A program made the translations under genes and the position numbers. This document shows positions 47,012 to 64,000 of a stretch of 64,000 nt of DNA, piece by piece. Positions within the stretch are counted from its first letter, which is position 1. The number at the start of each line of letters is the position of its first letter. The notes beneath the pieces are model-generated. The model had not been told where the DNA came from. It was given only the letters and a program-made list of their open reading frames with translations, and made no database searches. The stretch covers positions 73,088 through 137,087 of the forward strand of contig CAYZIY010000001.1 of the NCBI GenBank assembly GCA_964478715.1. Reading direction: 5' to 3'. The stretch comes from an uncultured Planctomycetales bacterium. GTDB taxonomy: Bacteria; Omnitrophota; Gorgyraeia; Zapsychrales; JBDRMG01.

Positions 47012-48463
47012 ATGAAGGCGCAAACCAATCTGAAGCAAAAATTCGTTCTGGTTTTCTCAAGTTTTGTTTTTCTTCTCTTTACGCTTAAAATTATTTTCCG
47101 CTTAGGCGGATTCGTTCTTCTTTCTAAGCGTGATCATCACTTCCGGCAGAGTCTAAGCCAACAAGGGGTCATCAGAATTCTGTGCCTGGGAGAATCCACC
47201 ACGTATATGGGTGAACAAAACGCCTTTCCTCGTCAGCTGGAAGCCCTTCTGAATCAAAAAAGCAGAAAAACATTTTTCGTCATCAACGGCGGTGTGGCTT
47301 CTATTACCTCCGAGGGCATAGTTGCGGACTTAAAGTCCAATATTCTGCGGTATCGGCCTGATATCGTTATTGTTATGATGGGGATTAACGACGATGAGAA
47401 GACCAAGCCGTTTCGGGATTCTTTCCAAACATACGCGGGGCTTTTTATAAAAAATATTCGCGTGGTGAAGTTTGCTGAGTTGATATGGAAGCATCTTCGT
47501 TATAAATTGATGGAAATAAGAGCGTCTGCTCAATCGGGACAGGAATTATTAAAAAGGACAAAAGGCAATGAATATGAAAACTATTTAAGGATGAAGATTG
47601 TAGACCGCCCCCGGGAATCCTGGGGATACCGTGAGCTTAGAGTTTATTATGAGAAACGGGGACAGCTGCTTCAGGCCGAGAAAATTTACTTTCAGGCCAT
47701 GCTCTCCAATCCTAAAAAAGAATTCGGTTATGATATCTTGCGTCAATTTTTATTGCGTCAAAAACGAGCGACAGAAGCAGAATCTTATTTGAATAAGGCG
47801 ATGCGGCGTAATCCTACGAAATACTGGCCGCATCGCCTTTGGGGACATTACTATACCTCAATCGCCGATTATGAGAAAGCGCAGGAATCTTATCAAAAAG
47901 CCATCGAAATGAGTTTTGACAGATCAACATCTGAGGCCGCTCCTCTCTACAGAGACCTTGCCCTGATGCTTGAGAAAAGAGGCCACTGCAAACAGGCCGG
48001 TGAGATTCTAAAAAAAGCCTGCTCAATTCAGGCTGATATTTTCAGCCAAGATATTTTGAAGCAGTGCTATCCAAATCAGAGTTTATCTGTCAGGCGAAAA
48101 GATTTTAGACAAGATACTTTGGAGTTTCCCGTTAGGAAAATTGAATACAAGCAGGCAACCGTAGATAATTATCGTCTTCTAGCTGAAATTCTTAATGATC
48201 ATTATATTCAACTCATTGCTATGCAGTATCCGATGGTAGAATTGCATGGTTTGAGGGAGGCGCTTAAGGATGTTCCTGTTTTCGCTTTTGCCGGTAATAT
48301 TGATCGTTTTCAGAGATTTTTAAATAAAGATGGGTTTGACGAATATTTCACGGATCGTTTTGGTGGAACATTCGGCCACTGCAGTACTCAGGGAAACAGA
48401 CTTATCGCCGAGAATCTTGTGGAAATAATTTTAGATAGACTCTCACAACAAGGTAACCCATAG
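47012..48463 (+). CDS. SGNH/GDSL-like hydrolase domain plus TPR repeat protein
   Basis: N-terminal TM helix; block I ILCLGESTT (Ser nucleophile) and VVMMGINDDE; C-terminal half with TPR-like helices. Confidence 0.5.
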   Translation: MKAQTNLKQKFVLVFSSFVFLLFTLKIIFRLGGFVLLSKRDHHFRQSLSQQGVIRILCLGESTTYMGEQNAFPRQLEALLNQKSRKTFFVINGGVASITSEGIVADLKSNILRYRPDIVIVMMGINDDEKTKPFRDSFQTYAGLFIKNIRVVKFAELIWKHLRYKLMEIRASAQSGQELLKRTKGNEYENYLRMKIVDRPRESWGYRELRVYYEKRGQLLQAEKIYFQAMLSNPKKEFGYDILRQFLLRQKRATEAESYLNKAMRRNPTKYWPHRLWGHYYTSIADYEKAQESYQKAIEMSFDRSTSEAAPLYRDLALMLEKRGHCKQAGEILKKACSIQADIFSQDILKQCYPNQSLSVRRKDFRQDTLEFPVRKIEYKQATVDNYRLLAEILNDHYIQLIAMQYPMVELHGLREALKDVPVFAFAGNIDRFQRFLNKDGFDEYFTDRFGGTFGHCSTQGNRLIAENLVEIILDRLSQQGNP

Positions 48464-49046: not shown

Positions 49047-49658
49047 ATGCAGGAATTGATGAATTCAATCGGTGTTCTTATGGGAGGATCGTGGGCAGCA
49101 GGTGTCAATCTGTATTTAACCACGGCTGGATTGGGATTTGCCCATCGAATGGGCTGGGTCCAGCTTCCCGGTAACTTGGAATACCTTCAGCATCCGCTGG
49201 TCATTGGAACCGCGGTTTTACTTTACGGGGTCGAATTTTTCGCCGATAAGATTCCCTGGGTGGACACGACATGGGATAGTATCCATACTTTTATCCGGCC
49301 CGCAGGCGGAGCGGCTTTAGGATATATGGCCATGGCAGATGTTGGTTCAGCTGTTCAGGTTCCCGTGGCTTTGTTGACCGGTTCGATTGCGCTCGATTCT
49401 CATCTAACCAAGGCTACAACCCGGGCGGCGATCAATACCTCCCCCGAGCCGGTTACCAATTCCGTGGCTTCCGTCACTGAGGATATTTCAGTTGCTGGCA
49501 TCATTTATCTGATTATCCAGCATCCAATAATCGCGGCCATTTGCGTGATTGCTTTCATTCTTTTTTCTGTTTGGTTTTTAAAGAAAATGTGGAGATTTCT
49601 TAAAAAAATTTTCTCAGGAAAAAATGCGCAAGAGAATCCCAAAACGCAGGCTGTTTAA
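49047..49658 (+). CDS. DUF4126-family membrane protein
   Basis: 203 aa with 4-5 TM helices and a G-rich N-terminal helix (GGSWAAGVNLYLTTAGLG). Confidence 0.45.
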   Translation: MQELMNSIGVLMGGSWAAGVNLYLTTAGLGFAHRMGWVQLPGNLEYLQHPLVIGTAVLLYGVEFFADKIPWVDTTWDSIHTFIRPAGGAALGYMAMADVGSAVQVPVALLTGSIALDSHLTKATTRAAINTSPEPVTNSVASVTEDISVAGIIYLIIQHPIIAAICVIAFILFSVWFLKKMWRFLKKIFSGKNAQENPKTQAV

Positions 49659-50491: not shown

Positions 50492-52453
50492 TTGCACGTA
50501 AATCCTTTTGAAATAAACGCCATGTTTGAAGAACTGAAACTAAAAAATCTGCGCTTAAGAGTCAAGCTGGTCTTGCTTCTTTTATTGATTTCCGTCATTC
50601 CTCTTTTAGCTATCAGCATATCCAATTATTTTTATGCTAAATCGGAATTGGAGAAAACCACGATTGAAAATCTCCGCGCGGTTAACAATTCCCGAGCGGC
50701 TTATATCAATCATTCCATCCAGCTGCGGCAGGAGCAGGCTAAGGCTTTTGCCGGTGCCTATCTTCCCCGCCAGCTGAGTGAATCCGGCTATAATGATCCG
50801 GCTTTGATCAAAGGCATCCAGGAAGACATTGAATCAACGTTTCGCGATTTGAATCAAGAGCCTACCAGTCCTTATCAGGACATCGACAAAAAGACGGATA
50901 TTGCTATCATCAGCATTTGGGATGTCCTGGGGAATATCGTCGCTTCGACCAATAAAGAATTGATCAACAGAAAAATGCCTATCGATTTTCTTCAAAAGGT
51001 TTTTGATCGCAAGGGAACCTACTTTGCTGGATTTCAGAAGGATCCGCTCACCGGTAAGAATTTGCTGATTATTTTGGAAGAGATCAGAAACTGGAAAACA
51101 AACCGCCTGGTGGGTGTCGTGTCTCTTAAGGTCAGTACCAAAACGCTTAATGAAATCACGACCGAAAGGGAGGGTTTAGGTTACAGCGGAGAGACTTACC
51201 TCGTTGATAGAAATTATTTGATGATCACGCCTTCGCGTTTTGTCGACGATTCCATCCTCAATAGGCGCGTGATTACACTCGGAACGCAGGCTTGCCTTAA
51301 AAGCAATAGCTATGCGGGTATTTATAAAAATTATCTCAATAAGGATGTTCTGGGTGTTCAGAAATATCTGCCTGATCAAAAATGGTGCCTTATTTCCGAG
51401 GTTGATGCCGGGGAAGCCTTAAGGCCTGTCCAGGAATTGCGCACACGCACGCTTGTCCTTGGCGGTTTGCTGATTTTTGTTATTTTAATCTTTGCTTATC
51501 TGGCCAGTCATACTTTAATCAAACCGATTCTGAAACTGCACGAGGCTTCTCAGAAAATCAAGAGGGGGCAGTTTGATATTACCGTTCAAGCTGAGGGTCG
51601 CGATGAAATTGCCGACTTATCGCGGGCTTTCAACGAAATGGCCAAGAGTCTTAAATTAGCCAATCAAGAACTCGAAGAAAAATCAAAGATCCTGTTCCAG
51701 AATCTGGCGGTTTCAACCAGCCAGAAAAAGGAATTAAAGAAAGTCAATCAGGAGTTGGATAGTTTTGTCTATACGGCGAGTCATGATTTGCGCGCACCCT
51801 TGCGGGCCATTGCCTCTTTTGCCACATTTTTGGAGGAGGATTATAAAGGCAAGCTGGGCACCGAGGGTCAGGAATATATCGATGAGATCCGAAAGGGCGC
51901 TACAAAGATGAATGCTTTTATCGAGGATCTTTTGACGCTTTCAAGAATCAGTCGGATTAAAAATCCTTATGAAGATGTCGATATCCGCATGGTTTTGGAA
52001 ACAGCGATTGAGCGGTTAAAGTTTGAGATAAAAGAAAAACAGGTCAATCTTGTTGCGGTCCAGCATTTGCCGGTCATGCATTGCGATCGCATCAAAATAA
52101 CCGAAGTCTTTTATAATCTGATCAACAATGCGATCAAATTTTCTTCTAAAAATAATAAAGAGAATCCCCGTGTGAAAATCGGATATGCTAAAATCGGAGA
52201 CTTGCATCAATTTTTTGTCAAAGATAACGGAATCGGTATCGACCCAAAATACCATGAGCAGATTTTCGGGATTTTTAAACGTCTGCATTCGGATAAAGAA
52301 TATGAAGGAACCGGTGCCGGTTTAAGCATTATCAAGAAAGTTATCGATGATCATCAGGGGAAAATCTGGGTCGAATCAGAGCTTGGAAAGGGAGCTGCGT
52401 TTTACTTTACGATTCCAGACAATCTCAGAGAAGATATAAGAAAACAGGAATAA
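50492..52453 (+). CDS. Sensor histidine kinase with periplasmic Cache-like sensor, HAMP, HisKA and HATPase_c
   Basis: TM1, about 270 aa periplasmic domain, TM2, HAMP (DEIADLSRAFNEMAKSL), H-box FVYTASHDLRAPL, and N/G1/G2 boxes (DNGIGI, GTGAGLSI). Confidence 0.8.
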   Translation: MHVNPFEINAMFEELKLKNLRLRVKLVLLLLLISVIPLLAISISNYFYAKSELEKTTIENLRAVNNSRAAYINHSIQLRQEQAKAFAGAYLPRQLSESGYNDPALIKGIQEDIESTFRDLNQEPTSPYQDIDKKTDIAIISIWDVLGNIVASTNKELINRKMPIDFLQKVFDRKGTYFAGFQKDPLTGKNLLIILEEIRNWKTNRLVGVVSLKVSTKTLNEITTEREGLGYSGETYLVDRNYLMITPSRFVDDSILNRRVITLGTQACLKSNSYAGIYKNYLNKDVLGVQKYLPDQKWCLISEVDAGEALRPVQELRTRTLVLGGLLIFVILIFAYLASHTLIKPILKLHEASQKIKRGQFDITVQAEGRDEIADLSRAFNEMAKSLKLANQELEEKSKILFQNLAVSTSQKKELKKVNQELDSFVYTASHDLRAPLRAIASFATFLEEDYKGKLGTEGQEYIDEIRKGATKMNAFIEDLLTLSRISRIKNPYEDVDIRMVLETAIERLKFEIKEKQVNLVAVQHLPVMHCDRIKITEVFYNLINNAIKFSSKNNKENPRVKIGYAKIGDLHQFFVKDNGIGIDPKYHEQIFGIFKRLHSDKEYEGTGAGLSIIKKVIDDHQGKIWVESELGKGAAFYFTIPDNLREDIRKQE

Positions 52454-52468
52454 AGGCGGATATAAATT

Positions 52469-52942
52469 ATGGAACAAAAAGAGAATCAACAACGCAAGAC
52501 GCGGGAGCTGAATATTTTACTGGTTGATGACAGCGAAGCCGACATCAAAATTGCTCAGCGGGCATTTGGTCAGGCCAAAATCAAAAACCGACTCTTCGTT
52601 GTCCAAAGCGCCCAGGAATGTTTCGATTTCATCTTTCATGACGGCTCCTATCGGGATTGCGGAAAGTATCTGTCTCCGGATTTAATCCTTCTGGATATCA
52701 GCATGCCTCAAATCGACGGGTTTGCTGTCTTAAAAAATCTCAAGCAAGAGGACGCGACAAAAGATATTCCCGTTATTATATTGACTGGGTCTAAAAACCA
52801 GGAAGATATTGGTAAAAGTTATCATATGCAGGCGGCTTCTTTCATTCAAAAACCGGTCACTTATGAACGATTTGTTGAGTTTATCGATGTGTTTAATGTT
52901 TACTGGAATATTGTTTGCAAATTGCCGCAAGCCAGCAAGTAG
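52469..52942 (+). CDS. Single-domain response regulator (Rcp1-like)
   Basis: 157 aa REC (ILLVDDSEAD, LILLDISMP, IQKP). Confidence 0.75.
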   Translation: MEQKENQQRKTRELNILLVDDSEADIKIAQRAFGQAKIKNRLFVVQSAQECFDFIFHDGSYRDCGKYLSPDLILLDISMPQIDGFAVLKNLKQEDATKDIPVIILTGSKNQEDIGKSYHMQAASFIQKPVTYERFVEFIDVFNVYWNIVCKLPQASK

Positions 52943-52955
52943 GAGGTTTTAAGGC

Positions 52956-54110
52956 GTGTCACAGAAGATATTGATCATCGAAGACAATGAACAAGATCAG
53001 AAAATCATCAGCCGGTTTCTTAAGAAATCCGATTATGAGGTCTGCGCTGTGGTTGACAGCGGTGAAAAAGGAATCGCAAGCGCCAAAGAATGCGCGCCTG
53101 ATATCATCATCCTGGATACCGTGTTGCCGGGAATGAACGGGTTCGAGACCTGCCGGATGCTCAAAACCACCGAGAAGGTGAAGACCAAAATTATTATCGC
53201 CACCGGCCGGCTGGATGCCGTCGATGCTCAGAAAGCCAAACAGGCCGGTGCCGATGATTATTGCGTGAAGACATCTGACTGCGCCTTGATTCTGGAAGCG
53301 ATCAGGAAGGTGTCCAGAGATCAAAAGGAAGATACCTGGGGTCTTCAAAAGAGCATGGAATGCGTCAAAATACTTTACCAGGAACTTGAGAAAAAGAATG
53401 CGGAACTGAAAAAGCTCAACACCTTACAGGCCGAATTTGTTTCTACGGCTTCTCACGAATTGCGCACGCCGTTAACGATCATTAAGGAAGCAATCAGCCA
53501 GGTCAACGAAGGACTCTTCGGCGAGGTCAATATCCAGCAAGCAGAGAAATTAGTCATGGCCATTGAGGGCGTTGATCGTCTCCGGCGCATGATTGACGAC
53601 CTCCTTGAGACCGCAAAATTGGAAGCCAAGAAAATCATACTCCATAAGAAAAAAATTGATCTGATCGAATTAGCTAGAGAAACCCAAACGCTTTTCTATC
53701 TGATGGCTCAGGAAAAAGAATTGAGCATTGATTGCCATCTGGCCTGCGATCAGCTGATCGTCGAAGCTGATCGGGACAGGATTCTTCAGGTCCTCATCAA
53801 TCTCGTCGGCAATGCGCTGAAATTTACCGAACAAGGACGGATCCTGATCACAGTCAAAGACTGTGATCCAAAGGCGGAATTCAGCGTTACCGATACGGGT
53901 TGCGGTATCGGCCGTGCTGATTTGGATAAAGTATTTTCCAAATTTGAGCAGTTTGGAAAATCCAACCTGACCCAGAAGGGAACCGGTTTGGGTCTGGCTA
54001 TCTCGAAAGATATTGTGGAATTGCACGGAGGTGCCATTTCTGTCGAAAGCGTTCCGGGCAAAGGTTCAACTTTTACCGTATGTCTTCCTAAAAAAGACGC
54101 AGGTCAATGA
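52956..54110 (+). CDS. Hybrid receiver-histidine kinase (REC plus HisKA plus HATPase_c, cytoplasmic)
   Basis: N-terminal REC (IIEDNEQD, IIILDTVLPG), H-box FVSTASHELRTPL, and ATPase N/G boxes (DTGCGIG, GTGLGLAI). No TM segments. Confidence 0.8.
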   Translation: MSQKILIIEDNEQDQKIISRFLKKSDYEVCAVVDSGEKGIASAKECAPDIIILDTVLPGMNGFETCRMLKTTEKVKTKIIIATGRLDAVDAQKAKQAGADDYCVKTSDCALILEAIRKVSRDQKEDTWGLQKSMECVKILYQELEKKNAELKKLNTLQAEFVSTASHELRTPLTIIKEAISQVNEGLFGEVNIQQAEKLVMAIEGVDRLRRMIDDLLETAKLEAKKIILHKKKIDLIELARETQTLFYLMAQEKELSIDCHLACDQLIVEADRDRILQVLINLVGNALKFTEQGRILITVKDCDPKAEFSVTDTGCGIGRADLDKVFSKFEQFGKSNLTQKGTGLGLAISKDIVELHGGAISVESVPGKGSTFTVCLPKKDAGQ

Positions 54111-54123
54111 GAGCAATACTATT

Positions 54124-54516
54124 ATGACTAAGAAAATCCTGATTGTCGATGATGAAAAAGATATCGCTCAGTTGATTGCCTTTCGATTGCAGGCTCATCG
54201 ATATAAAACCATTCTGGCTCATGACGGTGTCGATGGTCTGGCCAAAGCGAAAGAAGAAAATCCCGATCTTGTCATTCTGGATGTGATGATGCCCCGGCTC
54301 AATGGTTTTGAAGTCTGCCGCCTTCTCAAATTCGATGCGAAATATAAGAATATCCCTGTCATCTTTTTAACCAGCAAGAAAGAAGATGTGGATAAGGCGA
54401 TCAGCCAGGAGGTGGGCGCTGATGCCTATGTGACCAAACCTTTTGAGTCTAATGAGCTGATTGAGACTATTGGGAAAATCCTTCAATCCAAAGACACCTC
54501 TATTCCCGACGCATGA
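54124..54516 (+). CDS. Single-domain response regulator
   Basis: 130 aa REC starting at MTKKILIVDDEKD. The ORF track start at 54013 is an upstream in-frame extension without an RBS. Confidence 0.75.
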   Translation: MTKKILIVDDEKDIAQLIAFRLQAHRYKTILAHDGVDGLAKAKEENPDLVILDVMMPRLNGFEVCRLLKFDAKYKNIPVIFLTSKKEDVDKAISQEVGADAYVTKPFESNELIETIGKILQSKDTSIPDA

Positions 54517-55988
54517 TACAGGCCGGTAAAAAACTTTTCACTCAAGGAAACACGATTCTTTTTTTGATCCTTGCCTGTTCCTTTCTGTTGAACAATTTCA
54601 ATAATAATTTTTCTTTTGGATATCATTTTGATGAACCAAAAAAAATCAAGTTTATTGAACAAAAAGGGCATGATTTTCAGCATCCCTTGTTAATGACCAA
54701 GACCGTGGAGTGGGCCAACAGGGTTTTTGGTTTTGACACCAAGCAAGAAATTGTGCGATTAGGGCGGTTTTTTTCCGCCTTCTGGTTGACATTGATGATC
54801 TTGTTTCTTTATTATCTTCTGCGGTGTTTCCTCGGACAGTTTGAAACCCTGACTGTTTGTGCGCTTACGGCCGTCTCGCCGATCATTGTGGTGCATGCCC
54901 ATTATTTTAAGGAAGATGCGGCTCTGGTTTGTTTTTTGATGGCCGGTCTTTTGGGCCTGTTTCACTACAGCGAAAAAGCGACATCAAAGACGGCGCTATT
55001 GCTCGGTTTGGCCACCGGCTGCGCCGTTTCGTCCAAATATATCGGATTTCTCATTATTCCCCTTTATTTACTGACGCCTATGATCGCTCCGGTCCAAGAC
55101 CGGGCAAGATATTACCGGTTTCTTGCGCTTTCACTCGGTGTTGCCGGTTGTGTTTTCGCGGCCCTTAACTATTCCATGATCTGCAATTCAGAGATGGTCA
55201 AAGGTGCTGCCGGCTATACAGTTCGTCAGATCATAGAAGGTAATGCAGTAAGAATTTATCCCTGGCATTTCTTTTTGACTTTTCATCTGCGTTACAGTCT
55301 TTGGCCGGGATTAACCGGCTTGGTGTGCACCTTGTTTCTTATTGGATTTTTGCAGAGCATCTCTCAGTGGAAGAAAATCTGCTGGCAGGAAAGGATCTTG
55401 CTAAGTTACATCATTATCTTTTATCTGATTCCTGAGAATGCTCCGCTTAAAGCTTTTCCCGATTTTATGCGTTATATGTTACCCATTGTTCCGCTCTGTA
55501 TTTATTTTGCTTTTAAGGGAGCTCAAGAAATCAGCGGGATATTCAAACCCAAGAGCCGGAAAATAATTCACAAGGTCCTTATCGGTTTGATGATTTTGAT
55601 TTCACTGACCCACACAGTTTTGCTTGTTTATCATCTGGATCAAGACACACGCGAAAAAGCTAAGGCATGGTTGATGCAAGCACCGGAAAAATCGATGTGC
55701 GAACGTTATGTTTTTACCTATGATCTGATTAAATCATTAGCCCAATACGATGTTTCCCAGTGGCAACAAATGGGATTTCGCTATCTGGTGGCCAGCTCTT
55801 TTCAGTATGAACGTTACCTGTTGGCCGGACAGCTTTCAGGCCAGGAGGAAGAAGTTTATCGGTATGAAAAAAGATATCGCGAATTATTTTCCTATCCTTA
55901 TGAAGAAATCAAGCCGGCCTTCAAAAGTTTTGCCTTTAGCAATCCCGCTATTCGGATCATTGATCTAAAAGGAGAGAGCGCTCCGTGA
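54513..55988 (+). CDS. GT-C fold glycosyltransferase (PMT_2/ArnT-like), second copy in window
   Basis: 491 aa, polytopic, with an HFDEPK acidic motif in loop 1 and a C-terminal soluble domain. Confidence 0.45.
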   Translation: MIQAGKKLFTQGNTILFLILACSFLLNNFNNNFSFGYHFDEPKKIKFIEQKGHDFQHPLLMTKTVEWANRVFGFDTKQEIVRLGRFFSAFWLTLMILFLYYLLRCFLGQFETLTVCALTAVSPIIVVHAHYFKEDAALVCFLMAGLLGLFHYSEKATSKTALLLGLATGCAVSSKYIGFLIIPLYLLTPMIAPVQDRARYYRFLALSLGVAGCVFAALNYSMICNSEMVKGAAGYTVRQIIEGNAVRIYPWHFFLTFHLRYSLWPGLTGLVCTLFLIGFLQSISQWKKICWQERILLSYIIIFYLIPENAPLKAFPDFMRYMLPIVPLCIYFAFKGAQEISGIFKPKSRKIIHKVLIGLMILISLTHTVLLVYHLDQDTREKAKAWLMQAPEKSMCERYVFTYDLIKSLAQYDVSQWQQMGFRYLVASSFQYERYLLAGQLSGQEEEVYRYEKRYRELFSYPYEEIKPAFKSFAFSNPAIRIIDLKGESAP

Positions 55989-57040
55989 GACCCCCCGTGC
56001 GTTATGAGAGCCTTGATTTTCTTAAAGCCCTGGGAATTATTTATTTGATTGTTTTGCATCATCTGATTTGGGTGCTTCTTCTGGGCGATTACGGAACATT
56101 GAGATACGAGCAAGGCCGATCTTTGGGGATGGCTTTTGGGGTGCATAGCGGTCTGCACGTATTGGGCTTTCAGCTTCCTCTTTTGGCCGGGATGACATTC
56201 TTTATGATGCTTAAAACAAAAGACCTTGGATTTAAGGAGATAGCCTTAAGAGCGCTGATATTGTGTTTATTGGGTTTTATGATGAATTTATTTACCTGGG
56301 GTCCGCGGCATGCCTTTGATTGGGATGTTCTTCCCTTTATCGCTCTGTCTATGCTCATCGCTTATCCATTTTTGAGATTTTTCCCCACCGGCCTGGCTAC
56401 GTCGATTTTGATTCTGATTGGCATGATCGCTCTTCGATTTTCTTCTGCCTTTCCTTTTGGATTTCAGGACTATTATCTATATTATGTGATATTCGGAGAT
56501 CCTGCCGGCGGGCATTTCTGGCCATTGTGCCCGTGGTTTATCCTCTTTGCTTTAGGAATTTTCACGGGCGATGTCTTCTGCTCTCAATCGAGGAAGATGA
56601 TGATTTTTTTGATTATTATTGGGGCGGTTTTATTGATCACTTCGATGACAAAAGGTGATTTCTTTCCGGCCAGTCGGGAAAATCAGGTTTGGGGGCCGGC
56701 CTTGTTTAAGCCTTCGCCGTATTTTGTCTTAGGGATTATGGGATTTAGCTTATCGGTTTTACCTTTAACTCATCTGATATTTGAGAAATGGAAAAGCGCG
56801 AGAGATTTCTTGAAACGCTCGGGTTTTCTGTATTTCAGTTATGGGATTTTATGGATCTATTTGATCTCAACCGTTGTGGGCTATCACCTGACCGTGCTAG
56901 TTTTAAATAGATTAAGTCTTGATTATGCCGGAGCCCTTGTGGCCTTGACAATGTTGATTCTGTTTCAGTTGGTTGTGGCATTTTTCATCGGCAAGACTAT
57001 TTTTGAAATAAAGAAAAACAATAAGGAGAGACTGTCTTGA
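55985..57040 (+). CDS. Acyltransferase family 3-like integral membrane protein
   Basis: 351 aa, about 10 TM helices, with an N-terminal RYESLDFLKALGIIYLIVLHH motif typical of the acyltransferase_3 family. Confidence 0.4.
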   Translation: MRPPVRYESLDFLKALGIIYLIVLHHLIWVLLLGDYGTLRYEQGRSLGMAFGVHSGLHVLGFQLPLLAGMTFFMMLKTKDLGFKEIALRALILCLLGFMMNLFTWGPRHAFDWDVLPFIALSMLIAYPFLRFFPTGLATSILILIGMIALRFSSAFPFGFQDYYLYYVIFGDPAGGHFWPLCPWFILFALGIFTGDVFCSQSRKMMIFLIIIGAVLLITSMTKGDFFPASRENQVWGPALFKPSPYFVLGIMGFSLSVLPLTHLIFEKWKSARDFLKRSGFLYFSYGILWIYLISTVVGYHLTVLVLNRLSLDYAGALVALTMLILFQLVVAFFIGKTIFEIKKNNKERLS

Positions 57041-57711
57041 TTTTTGGTATCAAGTTTCTCTTGGCTTTTTGTAGCATCACTTATGAGCTGATTCTCGCGC
57101 AGTGTCTGGCCGCGTTTTTGGAGAATACCGTCTTACGCTATAGCGTGACCGTTGGTCTATACTTGTTTTCGATGGGCGTGGGCAGTTTTCTAGCGGAAAA
57201 AAAGACCAAGCATGCAGCCAAGACACTTCTGCGCGCGGAAGCTCTTCTGGTTCTTTGCGGGGGGTTAAGCGTTGTCTTTCTTTTTGCCGTAGATTATCTA
57301 AGCGGATCCCGTATAGTTTTTTCGGCGATAGCCCACGGGCTCATAGTGTTGATTGGTATATTAACCGGTTTGGAGCTGCCTTTGTTGATTCACCTGCAGG
57401 AAAAAAGAAGCCAGGACTTAGAGCATCAGATGATCGGATTTGATTATGCCGGTGCCTTTGCCGGGACTTTGTTTTTTGTCTTTGTGATCTTTCCCCGCTT
57501 TGGGCTTGTGGCCGGCAGTTTCTTTGTCGGGCTGATCAATGCTCTGACGGCTGCAACTCTTTTTTGGGCCTTGTTACCGCAAAAGGGCAGGGATCGGCCA
57601 ATGGCATTAAGGGTTATTGTGTTATACCTCATAATCTCTGTCGCATTTTGTGTTTTTTTATGGAACAGCGGTCAAATATCCCGGATTTTGATTGAGGGCT
57701 ATCTTCACTAA
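57037..57711 (+). CDS. Membrane protein homologous to the N-terminal TM domain of membrane-fused spermidine synthase (no catalytic domain); TTG start
   Basis: 224 aa. Its N-terminus (FCSITYELILAQCLAAFLENTVLRYSVTVGLYLFSMGVGSF) parallels the SpeE TM domain at 58154 (CSMIYELLLAQAIVERAGNTVVWYSLTIGLYLAAMGLGAF). Confidence 0.5.
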   Translation: MIFGIKFLLAFCSITYELILAQCLAAFLENTVLRYSVTVGLYLFSMGVGSFLAEKKTKHAAKTLLRAEALLVLCGGLSVVFLFAVDYLSGSRIVFSAIAHGLIVLIGILTGLELPLLIHLQEKRSQDLEHQMIGFDYAGAFAGTLFFVFVIFPRFGLVAGSFFVGLINALTAATLFWALLPQKGRDRPMALRVIVLYLIISVAFCVFLWNSGQISRILIEGYLH

Positions 57712-57720
57712 GGGGGCCAT

Positions 57721-58077
57721 ATGCATAAGAAATTAACCAAGGAATTCGGCAAACATTATCTGGTGGAATTCATTAAATGCAACAGCGATAAACTGAAATA
57801 TGTCAAAGACGTACAGGAACCTTTATCGGAGGCTGCGCGTCTGAGTGAGGCTCATATTTTCAGCCATCATTTTCATCAATTTGAGCCGGTGGGGGTCACG
57901 GGTATTATCTTGATCGGATGGTCCCATTTTTCTGTGCATACCTGGCCGGAAGATCAATATGTGACTTTCGATATTCTTACCTGCGGCAAGATGTCACCCG
58001 ATAAAGCCATCGATTATCTTCAAGATTATTTTGAGGCCAAGCAGATTGAATTAAAAGTTATTCCAAGGGGATTTTAG
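57721..58077 (+). CDS. speH: S-adenosylmethionine decarboxylase proenzyme (small bacterial class)
   Basis: 118 aa with the HYLVEF...C and SHFSVHTWPE (Ser-pyruvoyl site) signatures. Confidence 0.7.
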   Translation: MHKKLTKEFGKHYLVEFIKCNSDKLKYVKDVQEPLSEAARLSEAHIFSHHFHQFEPVGVTGIILIGWSHFSVHTWPEDQYVTFDILTCGKMSPDKAIDYLQDYFEAKQIELKVIPRGF

Positions 58078-58153
58078 CCGAAAATATGCAAAAGAAGCAA
58101 TTTGTTTCTTTTAGATCGAAAGCAGTGTCTTATAAACCATCAACCGAAGTGAA

Positions 58154-60013
58154 ATGATTTATCTCATAACTTTTCTTTGTGCGGCCTGCAGTATGATTTA
58201 CGAGCTTCTCTTGGCTCAGGCCATCGTTGAGCGGGCCGGTAATACCGTGGTCTGGTATTCGTTAACGATTGGTTTGTATTTAGCGGCTATGGGCCTCGGT
58301 GCTTTTGCTTCTCGGCGTATTTCCAAAGATCGGCTTTGGCCGGGATTGTTCAAAGTCGAAATGATTTTAAGTCTGACTGGAGCTCTGTCGGTGATCTGGG
58401 CTTTTTCTTCCTATATTCTTTTCGTTGTTTTATGGGCCGGTTATGTTTGGCAGTTGAGTCATGTCTTATTTTTTCTGCTGTCTTTCGCGATGATCCTGAC
58501 TATAGGATTTTTCACAGGATGTGAATTGCCTCTTTTGATCCGCATTGAAAAAAGATCCGCCACCGGTCAAAATTTAACCGCACGCGTTTTAAGCATTGAT
58601 TATCTGGGTTCTCTAGCCGGCGCCTTGTGCTTCTCGCTTTTCTTGCTCCCGCGGTTTTCGTTGATTGTAATCAGTTTGATGACAGCCCTGGTGAATTTGA
58701 TTTTAGCCTTTTTTATTGCCTTGCGCTTTATTTCTCAAAAGAGAGAGAAGAAGATTGTTCTTTGCGCAATGTTTTTTGTGATATTGATCGCTGTGTGTCT
58801 GCGCCTTGAGAGCATCGAGCAGTATTTCCTGAAAAGATATTATTATTACGATATCCAAAGCGAAAATCCCTGGAAATTGTTTTGGCTTGGAAATGACCAT
58901 TCGCCGGTTAAGCGCATCCGCTCCGCCTACCAGACTATTGATCTGGTTCAGACTCAAGGGTATGCGATGCCTTTTTCATTGATTAAAGATTTTTATAGCC
59001 AGAAGGCCTTGCTGGAAAAAGATTATCCGCGAAATACAGCTCTTTATCTGGATGGTCAGCTTCAGTTTTTATCGGATTCGGAAGAGATTTATCATGAGTA
59101 TTTCGCTCATGTGCCCGTGATTCTCAAAAGACGAGTGCCTAAAGATGTTTTGGTTTTAGGCGCCGGGGACGGCCTTTTGGTTCGCGAGTTGGCCAAATAT
59201 ACCGATATCAAGAGCATCACTGTTGTTGAAATTGATCCCCGGATGATCGAACTGGCCAAAGGACATCCTGTTTTTCTGGATCTCAATAAAGGGGTTTTTT
59301 TTGATCTGCGGGTTAAAATTATCGTGGAAGACGCCTATCATTATGTAAAGAACACCGAAGATAAATTCGATGCCATTTATATGGATTTTCCTCACCCAAA
59401 GGATTATAAGCTGAGCAAGCTTTATAGCCGCGAGTTTTATTATTTTGTGCGCCGAGCTCTAAAGGCAGATGGTTTTGCCGTGATGGATGCACCTTCGATC
59501 AATCTTTTCAAGACAAATGTTCCAGGAGGTATTTCTCTAAGCCCGTTGAACATGTGGCCGGTTTATGTGAATACCTTAAAAAGCGCCGGATTTAAAGGGA
59601 TTATTCCTTTTTCGTCTTTGATGGAGCCAGATAATCCAAAGGCGGTTACAGCGATCAAAAAGCAGATTGGACAAGCCGAGGCGATTATTGTTGAGGAATT
59701 CGACTTACGTGGTTATTCCCAAAAGGTGATTGAAGGACAAAATAATATTGTTTCCCAAATATTAAAAGATTTTATTGCTGATCATGCACAAGGGTTTATC
59801 TTTCTGCAAAATAAGCCATTATCGGCTGTCTTCAATTACAAGGATCCGGGTATTCCCCTGTATGTTCTTAATAAAGAAAGATTTGACGCGGCGTTTTCTT
59901 ATCCTCTATCATCCGGCAAGCAGGATGATGTTTTCTTCCCTCTGGTCAACACAATCCTCTGCCCGAGTCTCCCAAATTCTCATTATTGGCTTCGCCTTAA
60001 ACTTCCAAATTAA
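58154..60013 (+). CDS. speE: Membrane-fused spermidine/polyamine aminopropyltransferase
   Basis: About 220 aa polytopic N-terminal domain, then a class I MTase/spermidine synthase core (VLVLGAGDGLLVRE..., VVEIDPRMIELAK, EDAYHYV). Confidence 0.7.
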   Translation: MIYLITFLCAACSMIYELLLAQAIVERAGNTVVWYSLTIGLYLAAMGLGAFASRRISKDRLWPGLFKVEMILSLTGALSVIWAFSSYILFVVLWAGYVWQLSHVLFFLLSFAMILTIGFFTGCELPLLIRIEKRSATGQNLTARVLSIDYLGSLAGALCFSLFLLPRFSLIVISLMTALVNLILAFFIALRFISQKREKKIVLCAMFFVILIAVCLRLESIEQYFLKRYYYYDIQSENPWKLFWLGNDHSPVKRIRSAYQTIDLVQTQGYAMPFSLIKDFYSQKALLEKDYPRNTALYLDGQLQFLSDSEEIYHEYFAHVPVILKRRVPKDVLVLGAGDGLLVRELAKYTDIKSITVVEIDPRMIELAKGHPVFLDLNKGVFFDLRVKIIVEDAYHYVKNTEDKFDAIYMDFPHPKDYKLSKLYSREFYYFVRRALKADGFAVMDAPSINLFKTNVPGGISLSPLNMWPVYVNTLKSAGFKGIIPFSSLMEPDNPKAVTAIKKQIGQAEAIIVEEFDLRGYSQKVIEGQNNIVSQILKDFIADHAQGFIFLQNKPLSAVFNYKDPGIPLYVLNKERFDAAFSYPLSSGKQDDVFFPLVNTILCPSLPNSHYWLRLKLPN

Positions 60014-60310
60014 ATTGAAAATAATGTCCAATCTTGTACTATGGACAATTATTATATATTAAAATGTCCATTCTGAGTGAATACAGAGGAGATAAAGGCA
60101 GAAGGTTTCATGATTCTTGCGGGTGGAAAAGAATTTTATCTTGCCTTCTTGCGAATTTTTTATAAATAATATATACTCTCGTCGACAAAACAACATTTCT
60201 TGTTTTTTAAAGAAACCGTTTCCCCGAAACTCTCCCAACCCCCTTTCTTTTCCTTCCTGATCAGCTATACTTATAAAAATATCTCTATAAGCAATAAGAA
60301 TATTAAGAAT

Positions 60311-63300
60311 ATGACCCTTAAAACTCGGCATTCCAATCTGTTTAAGTCTATAGCATTCAGTATTATCATTCCTTTTTGTCTGTCTTTATTTACTCCCCCG
60401 CCGGCTCAAGCCCAGAGTTATCCATTGATTTTTGGCGGTATGCCCGTTTTACCTCCGCCGGGGGAGATGGTTCAGTCCACCCAATCTTATCAGCCAGCCC
60501 TGGTTAAGGGCATTGAGATCTTTCCGGATAATCCTTTTCACTTGAATTTCATCATCGATAGCTGCGACAGCTCTAAAAAAGACCAAGCCAGGATTAAAGA
60601 AACACGCAAGCTAATTAATTACTTTCTGGCCGCCTTAACCGTTCCTGAAGATGATATCTGGGTGAATTTATCACCTTATGAGCGTGACCGGATGATTACA
60701 GATGCTTTTGGAGAAACTGAAATGGGCCGGGATCTATTGGCCCAGGATTATCTCCTTAAGCAGCTTTCAGCCAGTTTGCTTTATCCCGAAAAAGATATGG
60801 GGAGAAAGTTCTGGGAGAGAGTTTATCAAAAAGCCCAGGATCTCTATGGGACAACTAACATTCCGATTAATACGTTTAATAAAGTCTGGATTGTACCGCA
60901 GGAGGCGGTGGTTTATACCAAGGATAATATCGCCTACATAACCGACAGCCGCTTAAAGGTTCTCCTTGAGGAGGATTATGTGGCTTTGTCGAAAAATATT
61001 GACAATGACTTAATCGGGACCGACCGGATGACCAATGAGGATGTGGAACAATTAAGCTCCACTTCAGCTTCTGTGGTCAGAGAGCTCATTATCCCAGAGA
61101 TTGAAAGAGAAGTCAACGAAGGCAGGAATTTTGCCCCGCTAAGACAAATTTATCATTCGCTGATTCTGGCCACCTGGTACAAAAAGGCATTGAGAAACAG
61201 TTTTCTTCGAAGGATTTATGCCGATCAAAATAAAATCGGGGGTATCAATCTCAATGATCCAGAAATCAAAGAGCGCATTTTTGAGCAATATCTTCAGGCT
61301 TTTCAACAAGGCGTTTATGATTATATTAAAAAGGATTTCGATTCTCATTCAAAATCTGTCATTCAAAGGCGGTATTTTTCCGGCGGTTTTAGCGCCAAAG
61401 AGCTGACCGATCTAATCATTGAAAAAAATCAATTGGCCCTGGGTGAGGCGGTGCCTCAAGGCGAAGTGAGCAATCATACGATCCGCCTGATTCCCCATTC
61501 GACGGTGAATTCTTATATCAGAAAGAACCTGCCGCTGGATTTATTGGAAAATATCGATCATATTCAAAATTACAAAATGATCCGGGCACAAGGCGCGCAG
61601 GCGCGCCTTGTGCCCATCAAAGACCTCCTCAAAAACACCGGCCAGGCCGCCCATATCGGCCTGGGGCAGATTTACGGTGAGCTGGTGGTTTATATTGATG
61701 CTGACCTAGATCAGGAAGCGGAGATTTACCAGCACGAGCTTTATGAAATCGCCAGATGGGAAGGGAAGCGAAGTGAGCTCGGGCTCAAACCCCATGAAAT
61801 GCGCCAGTGGATTAAAGATAATTATGAACAAGCGCAGACGTTAGCGGATCAGTGGCACGCCCAGGCTCCGTCTATCGATCATATCTATGCTGAGCATACT
61901 CAGCGCTCTGAAGCTTTCTTGCGTAATGCCGCCGAACTTTACGAATGGGCCCATTATGAAGAGGATATCAATCTGGCCGCCGGTGAATCTAAAGAGGATA
62001 CGTCGCTTGAGAAAAAGGGATCAGAGACAGATATTCTGATCAAGCAGGCTGAAATACAAGACAACAAGGGAAGGGTCCATACGCTCGATCTCAAAGCACA
62101 TGAGAATTTAACTCTTGAGGATTTTATTGAGATGGTCCGGATGTCTGGCTATGCGGCCGAAGACTATCGCGAGGTGCTTCATGCGGTTTTAGATCTCTTG
62201 GAGAAATCACCGCCTGAAGATAAACCCAGGCTTGTTGTCTATGATGCTCCGTTTAGCCGAGATTTCACCGGTTTCGCCCAGACTCAAGACATCAATGTTA
62301 TTGCTCTTCATCGAGATCTTTCCACAAATCCCGTTGCTATCATGCGGGAAATTTTTGATTATGTCCTTAAAAAATCTCAAAAAGAAAAGACATTGCAGAT
62401 AGCCTTTCTTCGGTCCCGTAATTTGCAGCAACCGCATCGGATCAGCCTGTTCGTTTTAGAGAAAGAATTCCGTATCGCTTTAAGCGAAGAAGCTTTCTCC
62501 ATCGTCCAAAGGGATCCGCAAAATCCCATGAATCTGATCCGGGCTCTAACCCGTCAGATCTTTTCGCTTCAAGACAGGCGATTAGAGAAAGTCATTGAAC
62601 GTTTGGCAACCGGCAATGAAGCCGATCAAATGATCGCGCAGGCCAAGGCGATGATCGAAGAGGCCTCTGCAGAGGCCGGAAGAGAGGATCTTATTCTTAA
62701 AGCCCAGAAGATCGTTGAAAACGCGATTTTGAAAATCATCGATACCAAGCTGGGGGAGAAAGACGACCTGGGATTTCCCGTAGACAGAGGTTTGGAGAAA
62801 ATTGACCGGGCGATTGAGGTTCTCGGCTATTATCAGGGGATTGGTATCATCACCGATTTGCAAATCGCCGCTTTAGGTCTTCTCGAGGAGCTAAAGAACG
62901 GATATATCAATGTCTATGAATTTAAGAACTGGCTTGCGCAAGAATGGGATGAAAAAAAGACCGATATCATTAATCAAATTCAGTTTTCCACTTCATTAAC
63001 GGAAGAGTTTCGGTCAACGATTGACACGACAGAAGAGGGTATCAGTGATGAACAAGAACAGATCAAGCTCGAAAAGTCAAAAAATCTTCTTCGGCATCTT
63101 CTTTTACACAAACCATCACTATTTTCAAGATTGATGTCTGAAATAGGCCTGGATGATATTCAGGAAGTAAATATCAGCCTGGAGGGATCCGGCCAGTTTA
63201 AGGATGTGTTTCGCGTAGAAGTGGTTGGTGAGTTTACGAAAGAAGTTTTCAAGATCGCCGTAGCTTTGAAAACGGACATTGACCGCGATAAGCCTCTCTA

Positions 63301-64000
63301 TGAAGAAGGAGAGAGAAAAATGCAGATCCTGCTTCAACCCACCGGTCATGTTCCTATGCACGCGGGAGTGGCCTATGTTGAGCTGGATGGAGATCGCTTG
63401 GGAGAGGTCCAGACCCAAAAACCCACTGAAGGGACATACGCGACTGTCGCGATTGATGAATTCATTGAAGGATTCACGGTTTATGATTATAAGCTCTTTC
63501 AATATTTTGAAGAAAAAAGAGATGAACCGCTTCCTTTAAGAATGCGCAAAGATGTGATCGAAACGCTTATCGATTCGCTTCTCTATCTCAATCCAGGCAA
63601 AAAGAAAGACTATCGGGGGTTTTTCGATATTCATATGAACAATCTCATGATTCAGGACGGAACAAAGAAAGTGAAGATTGTTGATTTGGGAAGAGAAGTT
63701 GGTTTCGGGTCGCTTTCTGATTTTCTGACCATTATAGCGATGGTCGGATATATTGAAACCGGGGATGAGCTGAATGTCCTTTATGAAAAATTTCCTCGCG
63801 TGAATTGGAATCAACATTTGAGGGCGGCAAGAAACAAGCTGGCAACGGTTAAAGATCAATATTTTCCTGATCAACAGCTTCGGGAGGGCCAACCAGACAC
63901 AAGAACGGTTGAGATTCAAGGAGTTCAATTTACTGCGCAGAAATTAAACAATGTCATTCGCTTGATTGGAATCGCCATCAATCGACATCTGACCAACGAT
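60311..64000 (+). CDS. Giant secreted protein (more than 1230 aa, 3' partial; the ORF runs off the window) with a C-terminal eukaryotic-like protein kinase domain
   Basis: ATG at 60311 with a signal peptide (SIAFSIIIPFCLSLFTPPPAQA). Manual translation in this frame found no stop codon through position 64000. The C-terminus has a Gly-rich loop LEGSGQFKDVF (about 63179), KIAVALK (63251-63271), FDIHMNNLMI (63623-63652) and VKIVDLG (63671-63691). Confidence 0.6.
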   Translation, partial: MTLKTRHSNLFKSIAFSIIIPFCLSLFTPPPAQAQSYPLIFGGMPVLPPPGEMVQSTQSYQPALVKGIEIFPDNPFHLNFIIDSCDSSKKDQARIKETRKLINYFLAALTVPEDDIWVNLSPYERDRMITDAFGETEMGRDLLAQDYLLKQLSASLLYPEKDMGRKFWERVYQKAQDLYGTTNIPINTFNKVWIVPQEAVVYTKDNIAYITDSRLKVLLEEDYVALSKNIDNDLIGTDRMTNEDVEQLSSTSASVVRELIIPEIEREVNEGRNFAPLRQIYHSLILATWYKKALRNSFLRRIYADQNKIGGINLNDPEIKERIFEQYLQAFQQGVYDYIKKDFDSHSKSVIQRRYFSGGFSAKELTDLIIEKNQLALGEAVPQGEVSNHTIRLIPHSTVNSYIRKNLPLDLLENIDHIQNYKMIRAQGAQARLVPIKDLLKNTGQAAHIGLGQIYGELVVYIDADLDQEAEIYQHELYEIARWEGKRSELGLKPHEMRQWIKDNYEQAQTLADQWHAQAPSIDHIYAEHTQRSEAFLRNAAELYEWAHYEEDINLAAGESKEDTSLEKKGSETDILIKQAEIQDNKGRVHTLDLKAHENLTLEDFIEMVRMSGYAAEDYREVLHAVLDLLEKSPPEDKPRLVVYDAPFSRDFTGFAQTQDINVIALHRDLSTNPVAIMREIFDYVLKKSQKEKTLQIAFLRSRNLQQPHRISLFVLEKEFRIALSEEAFSIVQRDPQNPMNLIRALTRQIFSLQDRRLEKVIERLATGNEADQMIAQAKAMIEEASAEAGREDLILKAQKIVENAILKIIDTKLGEKDDLGFPVDRGLEKIDRAIEVLGYYQGIGIITDLQIAALGLLEELKNGYINVYEFKNWLAQEWDEKKTDIINQIQFSTSLTEEFRSTIDTTEEGISDEQEQIKLEKSKNLLRHLLLHKPSLFSRLMSEIGLDDIQEVNISLEGSGQFKDVFRVEVVGEFTKEVFKIAVALKTDIDRDKPLYEEGERKMQILLQPTGHVPMHAGVAYVELDGDRLGEVQTQKPTEGTYATVAIDEFIEGFTVYDYKLFQYFEEKRDEPLPLRMRKDVIETLIDSLLYLNPGKKKDYRGFFDIHMNNLMIQDGTKKVKIVDLGREVGFGSLSDFLTIIAMVGYIETGDELNVLYEKFPRVNWNQHLRAARNKLATVKDQYFPDQQLREGQPDTRTVEIQGVQFTAQKLNNVIRLIGIAINRHLTND

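Follow-up and report, generated by a model that had tools for sequence, protein, structure and literature searches.

A predicted Sec-exported protein of Omnitrophota couples a phylum-specific N-terminal domain to an atypical kinase-fold domain

The giant proteins of Omnitrophota, which have been proposed to act as effectors, carry cytoplasm-type domains that are predicted to lie outside the membrane (10.1101/2023.11.21.568195; 10.64898/2026.06.07.730766). Here we describe a protein from the same phylum, encoded by an open reading frame (ORF) at positions 60311–64000 on the plus strand of a 64,000-nucleotide stretch of contig CAYZIY010000001.1; the whole of this stretch is referred to below as the window. 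We consider the protein best explained, with a probability of roughly 60%, as a Sec-exported, multi-module member of a very large family found only in Omnitrophota, in which a conserved N-terminal domain (the head) is followed by an atypical kinase as cargo. An initial annotation of this DNA had read the ORF as a secreted protein ending in a eukaryotic-like protein kinase domain.

The ORF that begins at ATG 60311 is a real gene. Translation in frame 2 gives 1230 sense codons, zero stops and a frame that is still open at the window end, in agreement with the initial annotation, which had reported an uninterrupted ORF of at least 1230 codons and had named an in-frame stop between 60311 and 64000 as the observation that would overturn it. 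At the base composition of the window the probability of a stop is 0.060 per codon (about one stop per ~17 codons), and the chance of a 1230-codon open frame is ~1e-33. Homology backs the choice of start codon, as the family member P0013 opens with an identical MTLKT. The gene looks native: neither its GC content (0.444) nor that of its third codon positions (GC3, 0.469) sets it apart from the rest of the window, and horizontal acquisition is not supported.

The last domain within the window, residues 916–1230 (63056–64000, +), is an atypical protein-kinase-like (PKL) domain, as judged by AlphaFold2 (AF2) modelling, Foldseek comparison and profile searches. Searches of Pfam, NCBIfam and PDB sequences with the whole protein and with its last 330 residues returned no match (in Pfam, none at E ≤ 1). 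Whole-protein searches yielded an APS-reductase_C match (E = 0.094) and a phrog_18390 match (E = 0.064), both dismissed as noise, and nothing meaningful in PADLOC or PHROGs; a word-seeded homologue search with the last 380 residues or with a C-terminal profile was empty. An exhaustive phmmer search over 1.84 billion cluster representatives did find 15 relatives (E = 3e-29 to 1e-8, about 30–35% identity), most of them embedded in proteins of 1100–6562 residues. The motifs of the query were then compared with 12 distant homologues at 25–32% identity (alignment A1), and a model of residues 916–1230 was built with AF2 from the alignment (pLDDT 86, pTM 0.85). The domain is essentially complete, spanning positions 2–308 of the 315 in the module's hidden Markov model (HMM).

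The predicted structure has the bilobal architecture of the PKL superfamily, with a beta-sheet N-lobe and alpha-C helix, a hinge, and a helical C-lobe bearing the catalytic and metal loops; its elements run in the order beta1-3, alpha-C, beta4-5, hinge, alpha-D/E, catalytic loop and DFG equivalent. Foldseek returned 128 PDB matches at E ≤ 1e-3, and all 50 of the matches listed are PKL-fold kinases, most at probability 1.00; they include N-acetylhexosamine 1-kinase (NahK) at the top, the CurKC kinase domain, GSK3, IGF1R, APH(3')-Ia, APH(4) and Bud32. The profile of alignment A1 searched against PDB sequences placed protein kinases in its top 37 positions (DAPK1-3 and Staphylococcus aureus PknB, E = 0.0016–0.04), with hinge on hinge, D-f-H-s-n-N on DLKPEN and VDlG on IDFG. 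We regard the PKL fold of this region as secure. The kinase fold proposed in the initial annotation is thereby upheld, and the outcome that it had said would undo the proposal, a different fold or a coincidental order of motifs, was not observed, since both profile and structure searches return kinases in the correct register.

The four motifs that the initial annotation had picked out, GSGQFKDV, IAVALK, DIHMNN and DLG, lie where they had been placed and coincide with invariant or nearly invariant columns across the 12 distant homologues. In the Gly-rich loop GSGQFKDV (residues 959–966; 63185–63208, +), G961 and K964 are invariant. The beta-3 strand IAVALK (residues 982–987; 63254–63271, +) ends in K987, the putative ATP-anchoring lysine in the alignment and the AF2 model, which is at least 90% conserved. 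The alpha-C helix starts with EEGE (63302–63313, +), in which both G1000 and E1001 are invariant; the latter is the putative partner of K987, again from alignment and model. The hinge, DEFIEG (63455–63472, +), which was placed by alignment A1 and by the DAPK/PknB profile alignment, contains the invariant E1050 and G1054. The catalytic loop DIHMNN (residues 1106–1111; 63626–63643, +) aligns with DLKPEN of DAPK1 and holds the putative catalytic base D1106, H1108 (at least 90% conserved) and the invariant N1111. Finally, DLG (residues 1125–1127; 63683–63691, +), the DFG equivalent, aligns with IDFG of DAPK1 and has an invariant D1125, the putative metal-binding residue, and an invariant G1127. 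Taken across alignment A1, the conserved columns read S-G-x-x-K-D-V-F, A-h-K, E-E-G-E, E-E-F-I-E-G, D-h-H-x-x-N and V-D-h-G.

The predicted catalytic set of a PKL enzyme, K987, E1001, D1106, N1111 and D1125, is thus invariant or at least 90% conserved in the alignment, and because these residues are conserved the domain is probably active. That they are kept at only 25–32% overall identity points to selection on catalysis. Many secreted or effector kinase-fold proteins are pseudokinases, and a catalytically dead domain serving as a scaffold or binding module would fit that precedent, as well as the lysine that replaces the third glycine of GxGxxG and the loss of the beta-3 lysine in P0130 and of the catalytic loop in P0134. 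We nevertheless consider a pseudokinase improbable, given that the query and at least 90% of its homologues retain the catalytic set together with G1127.

Which kind of kinase this is proved harder to settle with existing families. The label of a eukaryotic-like protein kinase holds for the fold and is otherwise too specific: the domain fails the gathering threshold of Pkinase (PF00069), where its best score is 11.1 bits (E = 0.25) and the cutoff 31.7, it has a D-x-H-x-x-N catalytic loop, and it has no APE motif. Compared with Hanks-type kinases such as DAPK1 and PknB (4eqm), it shares the N-lobe topology of beta1-beta3, alpha-C and beta4-5 and, in the profile matches to these kinases, a hinge, a catalytic loop (D...N) and a DFG-like motif that follow one another in the same order and register. 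It differs from them in the sequence leading to and through the catalytic loop (GFFDIHMNN), where HRD is replaced by G-F-F-D (G-P/F-x-D in the kinase-module family) and the residue at +2, a lysine in Ser/Thr kinases and Ala or Arg in Tyr kinases, is histidine. It also has no evident activation segment, a helix beginning about 8 residues after DLG in the AF2 model. A comparison by hhalign of the kinase profile with the Pkinase-bearing paralogue P0116 was not significant.

The aminoglycoside phosphotransferase (APH), choline kinase (ChoK) and NahK enzymes (PF01636; NahK 4wh2, APH(3')-Ia 4gkh) have in common with the query domain a bilobal PKL fold, a Gly-rich loop, a beta-3 lysine, an alpha-C glutamate, a D-x-H-x-x-N loop, a D-x-G metal motif and the lack of an APE motif or evident activation segment, and it is to these enzymes that the lowest Foldseek E-values (6e-6) and the strongest of the weak Pfam matches belong. 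Unlike them, the query domain has two extra N-terminal helices and a distinct C-lobe with a beta-hairpin, its TM-scores to them are only 0.3–0.4, and it lies inside a multi-module protein with a predicted Sec signal, whereas the described enzymes are soluble and single-domain. No member of the query family reaches the APH gathering score, the query itself has no match to the family, and in the Brenner motif H-x-D-x-x-x-x-N the aspartate and asparagine are present and the histidine is missing. Because of the D-x-H-x-x-N loop and the absence of both APE motif and evident activation segment, we infer that the domain lies closer to the APH/ChoK/Bud32 type of 'eukaryotic-like kinases' than to the Hanks type. 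It is best called a new, rare family of the PKL superfamily that stands outside Pkinase, APH and every Pfam family.

The substrate follows less readily from this placement. The domain could be a small-molecule kinase of APH/ChoK/NahK type rather than a protein kinase; its substrate would then be a sugar, lipid, antibiotic or metabolite that comes from the envelope or from a partner. The top Foldseek match is a sugar kinase, NahK, with many APH(3') and APH(4) structures next, and D-x-H-x-x-N is the consensus of the APH family (PF01636). The missing APE motif and the helix that begins so soon after DLG speak for the same reading. The best weak Pfam matches of single module members are likewise to APH (E = 0.001, reached by 1 of 12 members), followed by ABC1 (0.009), Choline_kinase (0.17) and Pkinase (0.25); sugar-metabolism modules are, in addition, abundant in paralogues and in Omnitrophota giant proteins. 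Set against these points, the profile search of PDB sequences puts protein kinases first, CurKC, Bud32 and the eukaryotic protein kinases rank beside APH in Foldseek, the Brenner histidine is absent (GP-x-D in the family, GFFD in the query), and the APH gathering score is missed throughout. We therefore give this alternative serious weight, at somewhat under even odds for the full proposal; it departs from our preferred explanation in the substrate only, and on that narrower question a small molecule is as likely as a protein.

Two sets of relatives deserve separate mention. The closest homologue of the kinase module, P0121 (408 residues, MBD3271272.1), is a stand-alone protein from a metagenome-assembled genome (MAG) labelled Elusimicrobia and the only named member outside Omnitrophota, which could reflect mis-binning or lateral transfer. 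A sister subfamily, located directly behind the head, occurs at loci L078 (ORF from 5938, 795 residues) and L055 (ORF from 5881, incomplete) and carries the motifs GEGAFKYVYK, AVK, EEFIEG, KDMHGRNFIV and MVDIGN. These two proteins match the module HMM at E = 1e-16 and 1e-13, respectively, and have sub-threshold Pfam matches to PK_Tyr_Ser-Thr and ABC1 (~0.007–0.008).

Searched as a whole, the protein has more than 3196 significant homologue clusters, nearly all of which share only residues ~1–360 with the query and have unrelated C-terminal parts. Every homologue with a named organism comes from Candidatus Omnitrophota or a hydrothermal-vent metagenome. Among the matches listed, 120 of 120 align over the shared region at 50–57% identity, always at the N-terminus of the subject. 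In species-representative genomes we found at least 580 loci with the head domain, nearly all in MAGs labelled Omnitrophota, and kept 78 distinct loci (L001–L078) for the analysis of neighbourhoods and architectures. By label, 53 of these are Omnitrophota or Omnitrophica, 22 are ENA bins named 'uncultured Planctomycetales', 2 are unclassified and 1 is Ca. Aceula lacicola, which belongs to Omnitrophota in NCBI taxonomy. Complete family proteins in the 78 loci measure 403–2334 residues (median 1451), and head-only proteins of 403–527 residues exist. Tandem arrays of 2–3 family genes within ~13 kb occur at 13 of the 78 loci, three of which (L063, L075, L078) have three head-domain copies each. 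The most frequent conserved-neighbour cluster turned out to be an antisense ORF (~130 residues, L050:6325-6738 on the minus strand, with equivalents in 13 loci), an artefact of overlapping the conserved head coding sequence.

Behind the head, a direct scan of paralogues identified DnaJ plus FHA, PP2C, Fic, Macro, a complete PPDK-type set, GGDEF, Pkinase and peptidase M48 domains, and HEAT, HATPase_c, REC, methyltransferases, PGM and further domains appear in precomputed annotations. The kinase module belongs to this repertoire: the head stands at the start of 8 of its 15 homologues, including proteins of 3218, 3728 and 6562 residues, and both modules are found in the 3.2–6.6 kAA (thousand amino acids) proteins P0128, P0130 and P0133. 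These matches and alignments indicate that the head defines a very large, Omnitrophota-restricted family of modular proteins. The ORF is one member of it, and the kinase is a rare cargo module there. The initial annotation had overlooked this family, although it is a more informative context than the upstream genes.

The head itself comprises ~320 residues (36–360; 60416–61390, +) directly after the signal peptide, as delimited in the family alignment. The query has all the motifs by which we define the family, including WVNLSPYE, TEMGRDLLAQDY, NTFNKVWIVP and RRYFSGG (RKYFSGG in the family form), together with LKVLLEEDY and PEIEREVNEG. It is the most conserved stretch of the protein, far above any downstream part, with a mean column identity of 65% and ~60 invariant columns (alignment A2), many of them Asp, Glu, Asn, Lys, Arg, Tyr or Trp, and with no invariant Cys or His. 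Conservation halts sharply at YFSGG (residues 355–359; 61373–61387), written R-K-Y-F-S-G-G across the family. The description of ~950 unrecognised residues in the initial annotation is accurate in that the first ~360 have no Pfam match, and incomplete in that these ~360 are the best-conserved part of the protein and belong to a large Omnitrophota family. Searches with the head against Pfam, NCBIfam and PDB sequences found no relative, and its AF2 model (pLDDT 69) had no fold analogue in structure searches. In a limited literature search, neither the head domain nor the kinase module was described in West-Roberts 2023, the 2026 complete-genome preprint or Seymour 2023.

C39 double-glycine peptidase domains have been reported in Omnitrophota giant proteins (West-Roberts 2023, 10.1101/2023.11.21.568195). 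The double glycine of the invariant YFSGG at the module boundary may, as pure speculation, mark a processing or recombination junction.

So strongly conserved a domain might itself carry the principal function, for instance as a novel envelope-acting enzyme, a pore or a translocation domain, with the C-terminal modules, the kinase included, in accessory or regulatory roles. The head-only proteins and the degree and character of the conservation described above favour such an arrangement. We think it unlikely on balance, as no catalytic-type fold or motif was recognised in the head, invariant Cys and His are absent, and the extreme variety of appended enzymes is hard to square with the regulation of a single activity; were the activity one of translocation or docking, it would also fit our preferred explanation.

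The N-terminus of the protein has the features of a Sec/signal peptidase I (SPase I) signal peptide (residues 1–34; 60311–60412, +), predicted from the sequence and from family statistics, with an n-region MTLKTRHSNLFK, an h-region SIAFSIIIPFCLSLF and a c-region TPPPAQA|Q that would be cleaved at AQA|Q. Of 106 aligned family members, 103 have Ala at -1, 103 have Gln at +1 and 96 have A/S/V/T/G at -3; the n-region carries a net positive charge in 98%. A positive n-region followed by a hydrophobic h-region, small residues at both -3 and -1, and the lack of a lipobox Cys are what is expected of an exported SPase I substrate, and we infer that the protein is exported via Sec. The clear Sec signal peptide noted in the initial annotation is thus borne out, so far as sequence can tell, by the layout of its three regions and by a nearly invariant A|Q site among 106 relatives. 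A crude hydropathy scan detected no transmembrane (TM)-like segment after the signal peptide in the query, save a weak one at 1130–1148 inside the kinase C-lobe, and most homologues that combine head and kinase have no TM-like segment between the two.

Alternatively, the N-terminus might remain uncleaved and the protein be cytoplasmic, or tethered to the inner membrane and facing the cytoplasm, with the kinase in intracellular signalling and perhaps linked to the two-component genes upstream. The cargo modules are of cytoplasmic type and require ATP, the gene sits downstream of histidine kinase and response regulator genes, and a 2026 preprint (10.64898/2026.06.07.730766) takes many TM-only giant proteins as cytoplasm-facing. 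The positive n-region, the neutral residues that follow the h-region, and the nearly invariant small residues at -3/-1 with Gln at +1 predict instead an N-in/C-out orientation with SPase I cleavage, and the query has no second TM segment that could return its body to the cytoplasm. A 297-bp gap with promoter-like sites, moreover, separates the gene from its neighbour, and zero neighbouring genes are conserved across the 78 loci. We consider a cytoplasmic location very unlikely.

Our preferred explanation, a Sec-exported head protein with kinase cargo, would work as follows. The signal peptide would be cleaved on export, and the head would act as a common address module for interchangeable cargo, either docking to an export or delivery machine or anchoring the protein in the envelope. 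The downstream modules would be drawn from a phylum-specific pool, here two recurrent modules (A and B) and then the PKL domain, which would bind ATP/Mg and transfer phosphate to a protein or small molecule. The cargo may be an effector directed at a host or prey cell, working in or on that cell; such a site of action is the most plausible option because there is no TM segment after the signal peptide and no obvious ATP supply outside the cytoplasm, and it fits both the host-dependent or predatory lifestyle proposed for Omnitrophota and the view of their giant proteins, with a like set of modules, as extracellular effectors.

Several observations weigh against this explanation. The head is without fold or sequence analogue, so that its address role is suggested by architectural analogy only, and its ~30 invariant polar residues would be equally compatible with an enzyme. 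Export is predicted from sequence rules, and ~40% of family members have at least one additional TM-like segment in the crude hydropathy scan, so topology may vary. Across the 78 loci, head genes have no conserved neighbour that encodes a transporter, secretin, chaperone or immunity protein, and no orthologue with the same architecture was found in genome and metagenome searches; the true C-terminus lies beyond the window. The TM-scores of the kinase domain to known kinases are modest, at 0.3–0.5.

Between the head and the kinase lie two further modules and a linker. Module A (residues ~380–560; 61448–61990, +), recognised by TGQxAHIGLG/TGQxGHIGLG, EMRQWI and NLAAG, is shared with P0001-7, P0020, P0046 and P0091, is also internal to the 6562-residue P0130, and has no relative in PDB or Pfam. 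Its reading as a degenerate HExxH peptidase (QHELYE) was rejected, as the His and the Glu vary among relatives; in paralogues P0005 and P0007 the M48 domain sits downstream of the region shared with the query. Module B (residues ~580–765; 62048–62605, +) matches two copies in P0009 and one in P0036. By these sequence matches, both qualify as recurrent modules specific to Omnitrophota. The E/L/I/K-rich linker that follows (residues 766–915; 62606–63055, +) is presumably helical, and no homologue of it was found.

Upstream, the gene is preceded by an AT-rich intergenic region of 297 bp (60014–60310, +) with sigma-70-like promoter matches, for example at 60141–60177; these are consensus matches only, and the gene is probably transcribed from a promoter of its own. 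At 59907–59930, within the coding sequence of the upstream gene and ~85 bp short of its stop (the gene ends at 60013), lies a terminator-like hairpin with a T-run, probably a chance match. The genes at 50492–60013 encode a dCache-HAMP histidine kinase, a response regulator, a hybrid REC-histidine kinase, a PMT_2 glycosyltransferase, an HGSNAT-like acyltransferase, an unassigned 224-residue ORF and a 619-residue spermidine-synthase-like protein. The position downstream of a two-component and glycosyltransferase cluster is thus as the initial annotation had given it, whereas conserved linkage of such a cluster to the head family was seen at none of the 78 loci. A functional tie to the cluster is unsupported, as the linkage is not kept in other genomes and the gene lies behind a promoter-like spacer. 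Farther upstream, a GDSL-lipase-plus-TPR protein (47012–48463) and a DUF4126 membrane protein (49047–49658) are unrelated to the kinase ORF. For an extension of the ORF, the product of the upstream neighbour had no record, the exact DNA of the window end had no match in genome and metagenome contigs, and a metagenome scan by protein with the kinase region as query gave zero relatives. The kinase is the last domain within the window, and its description as C-terminal is unproven because the ORF runs past the window end.

Several known systems resemble parts of this design. The secreted kinases Fam20C/Fjx, CotH and VLK are similar in concept only, as a signal peptide with a kinase fold that acts outside the cytoplasm of the producer; they show no sequence relation to the query domain and none is among its 50 listed Foldseek matches. 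The analogy to Fam20 and CotH drawn in the initial annotation therefore stands as a concept and not as a structural relationship. The closest architectural parallels are polymorphic toxins with a two-partner-secretion (TPS) domain, such as CdiA, and surface enzymes with SLH domains, which likewise combine a signal peptide, a conserved N-terminal module and non-homologous C-termini across a sharp boundary (YFSGG in the head family), and which occur as many paralogues per genome and in tandem arrays. The head, however, shows neither sequence homology nor a similar fold to TPS, SLH or any other solved domain. The head family carries signalling and metabolic enzymes and no toxin domain of the classic nuclease or deaminase kind, and no conserved partner transporter or immunity gene lies near head genes. 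Within the window, which ends before any downstream gene, we found no Pfam trafficking domain (TPS, Rhs, LXG or similar), conserved neighbour or PADLOC match of the kind that would mark a polymorphic toxin or two-partner-secretion system. The resemblance is one of logic only.

The giant 'Archaeovorins' of Omnitrophota come from the same phylum and share with the head family HEAT, HATPase_c, methyltransferase, PGM, PPDK, GGDEF and REC modules. They span 10–147 kAA, whereas the query has at least 1230 residues and no TM helices after its signal peptide; with family proteins of 403–2334 residues in the 78 loci, neither it nor its relatives resemble the Archaeovorin type of at least 30 kAA with many TM helices and multiple enzymes. 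The PKL domain adds a new, very rare family with an intact catalytic core behind a predicted export signal, which is unusual for bacteria and testable as a 315-residue construct, and the undescribed N-terminal domain defines one of the largest protein families of Omnitrophota. A bolder and rather doubtful extension would make the head the recognition or translocation module of an unrecognised, phylum-wide delivery route that takes hundreds of cytoplasm-type enzymes onto or into host or prey cells. Were it true, ultra-small Omnitrophota would deliver cargo that includes a new kinase family and Fic, PP2C, Macro, DnaJ, GGDEF and glycolytic modules, and the mid-sized head proteins would be tractable counterparts of the giant 'Archaeovorins'. 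The head family in any case recasts the question raised by the giant proteins, whether cytoplasm-type enzymes are truly outside the cell and for what purpose, in a cleaner and experimentally testable form, because its members, at 0.4–2.3 kAA, have a textbook predicted SPase I site and mostly lack TM helices.

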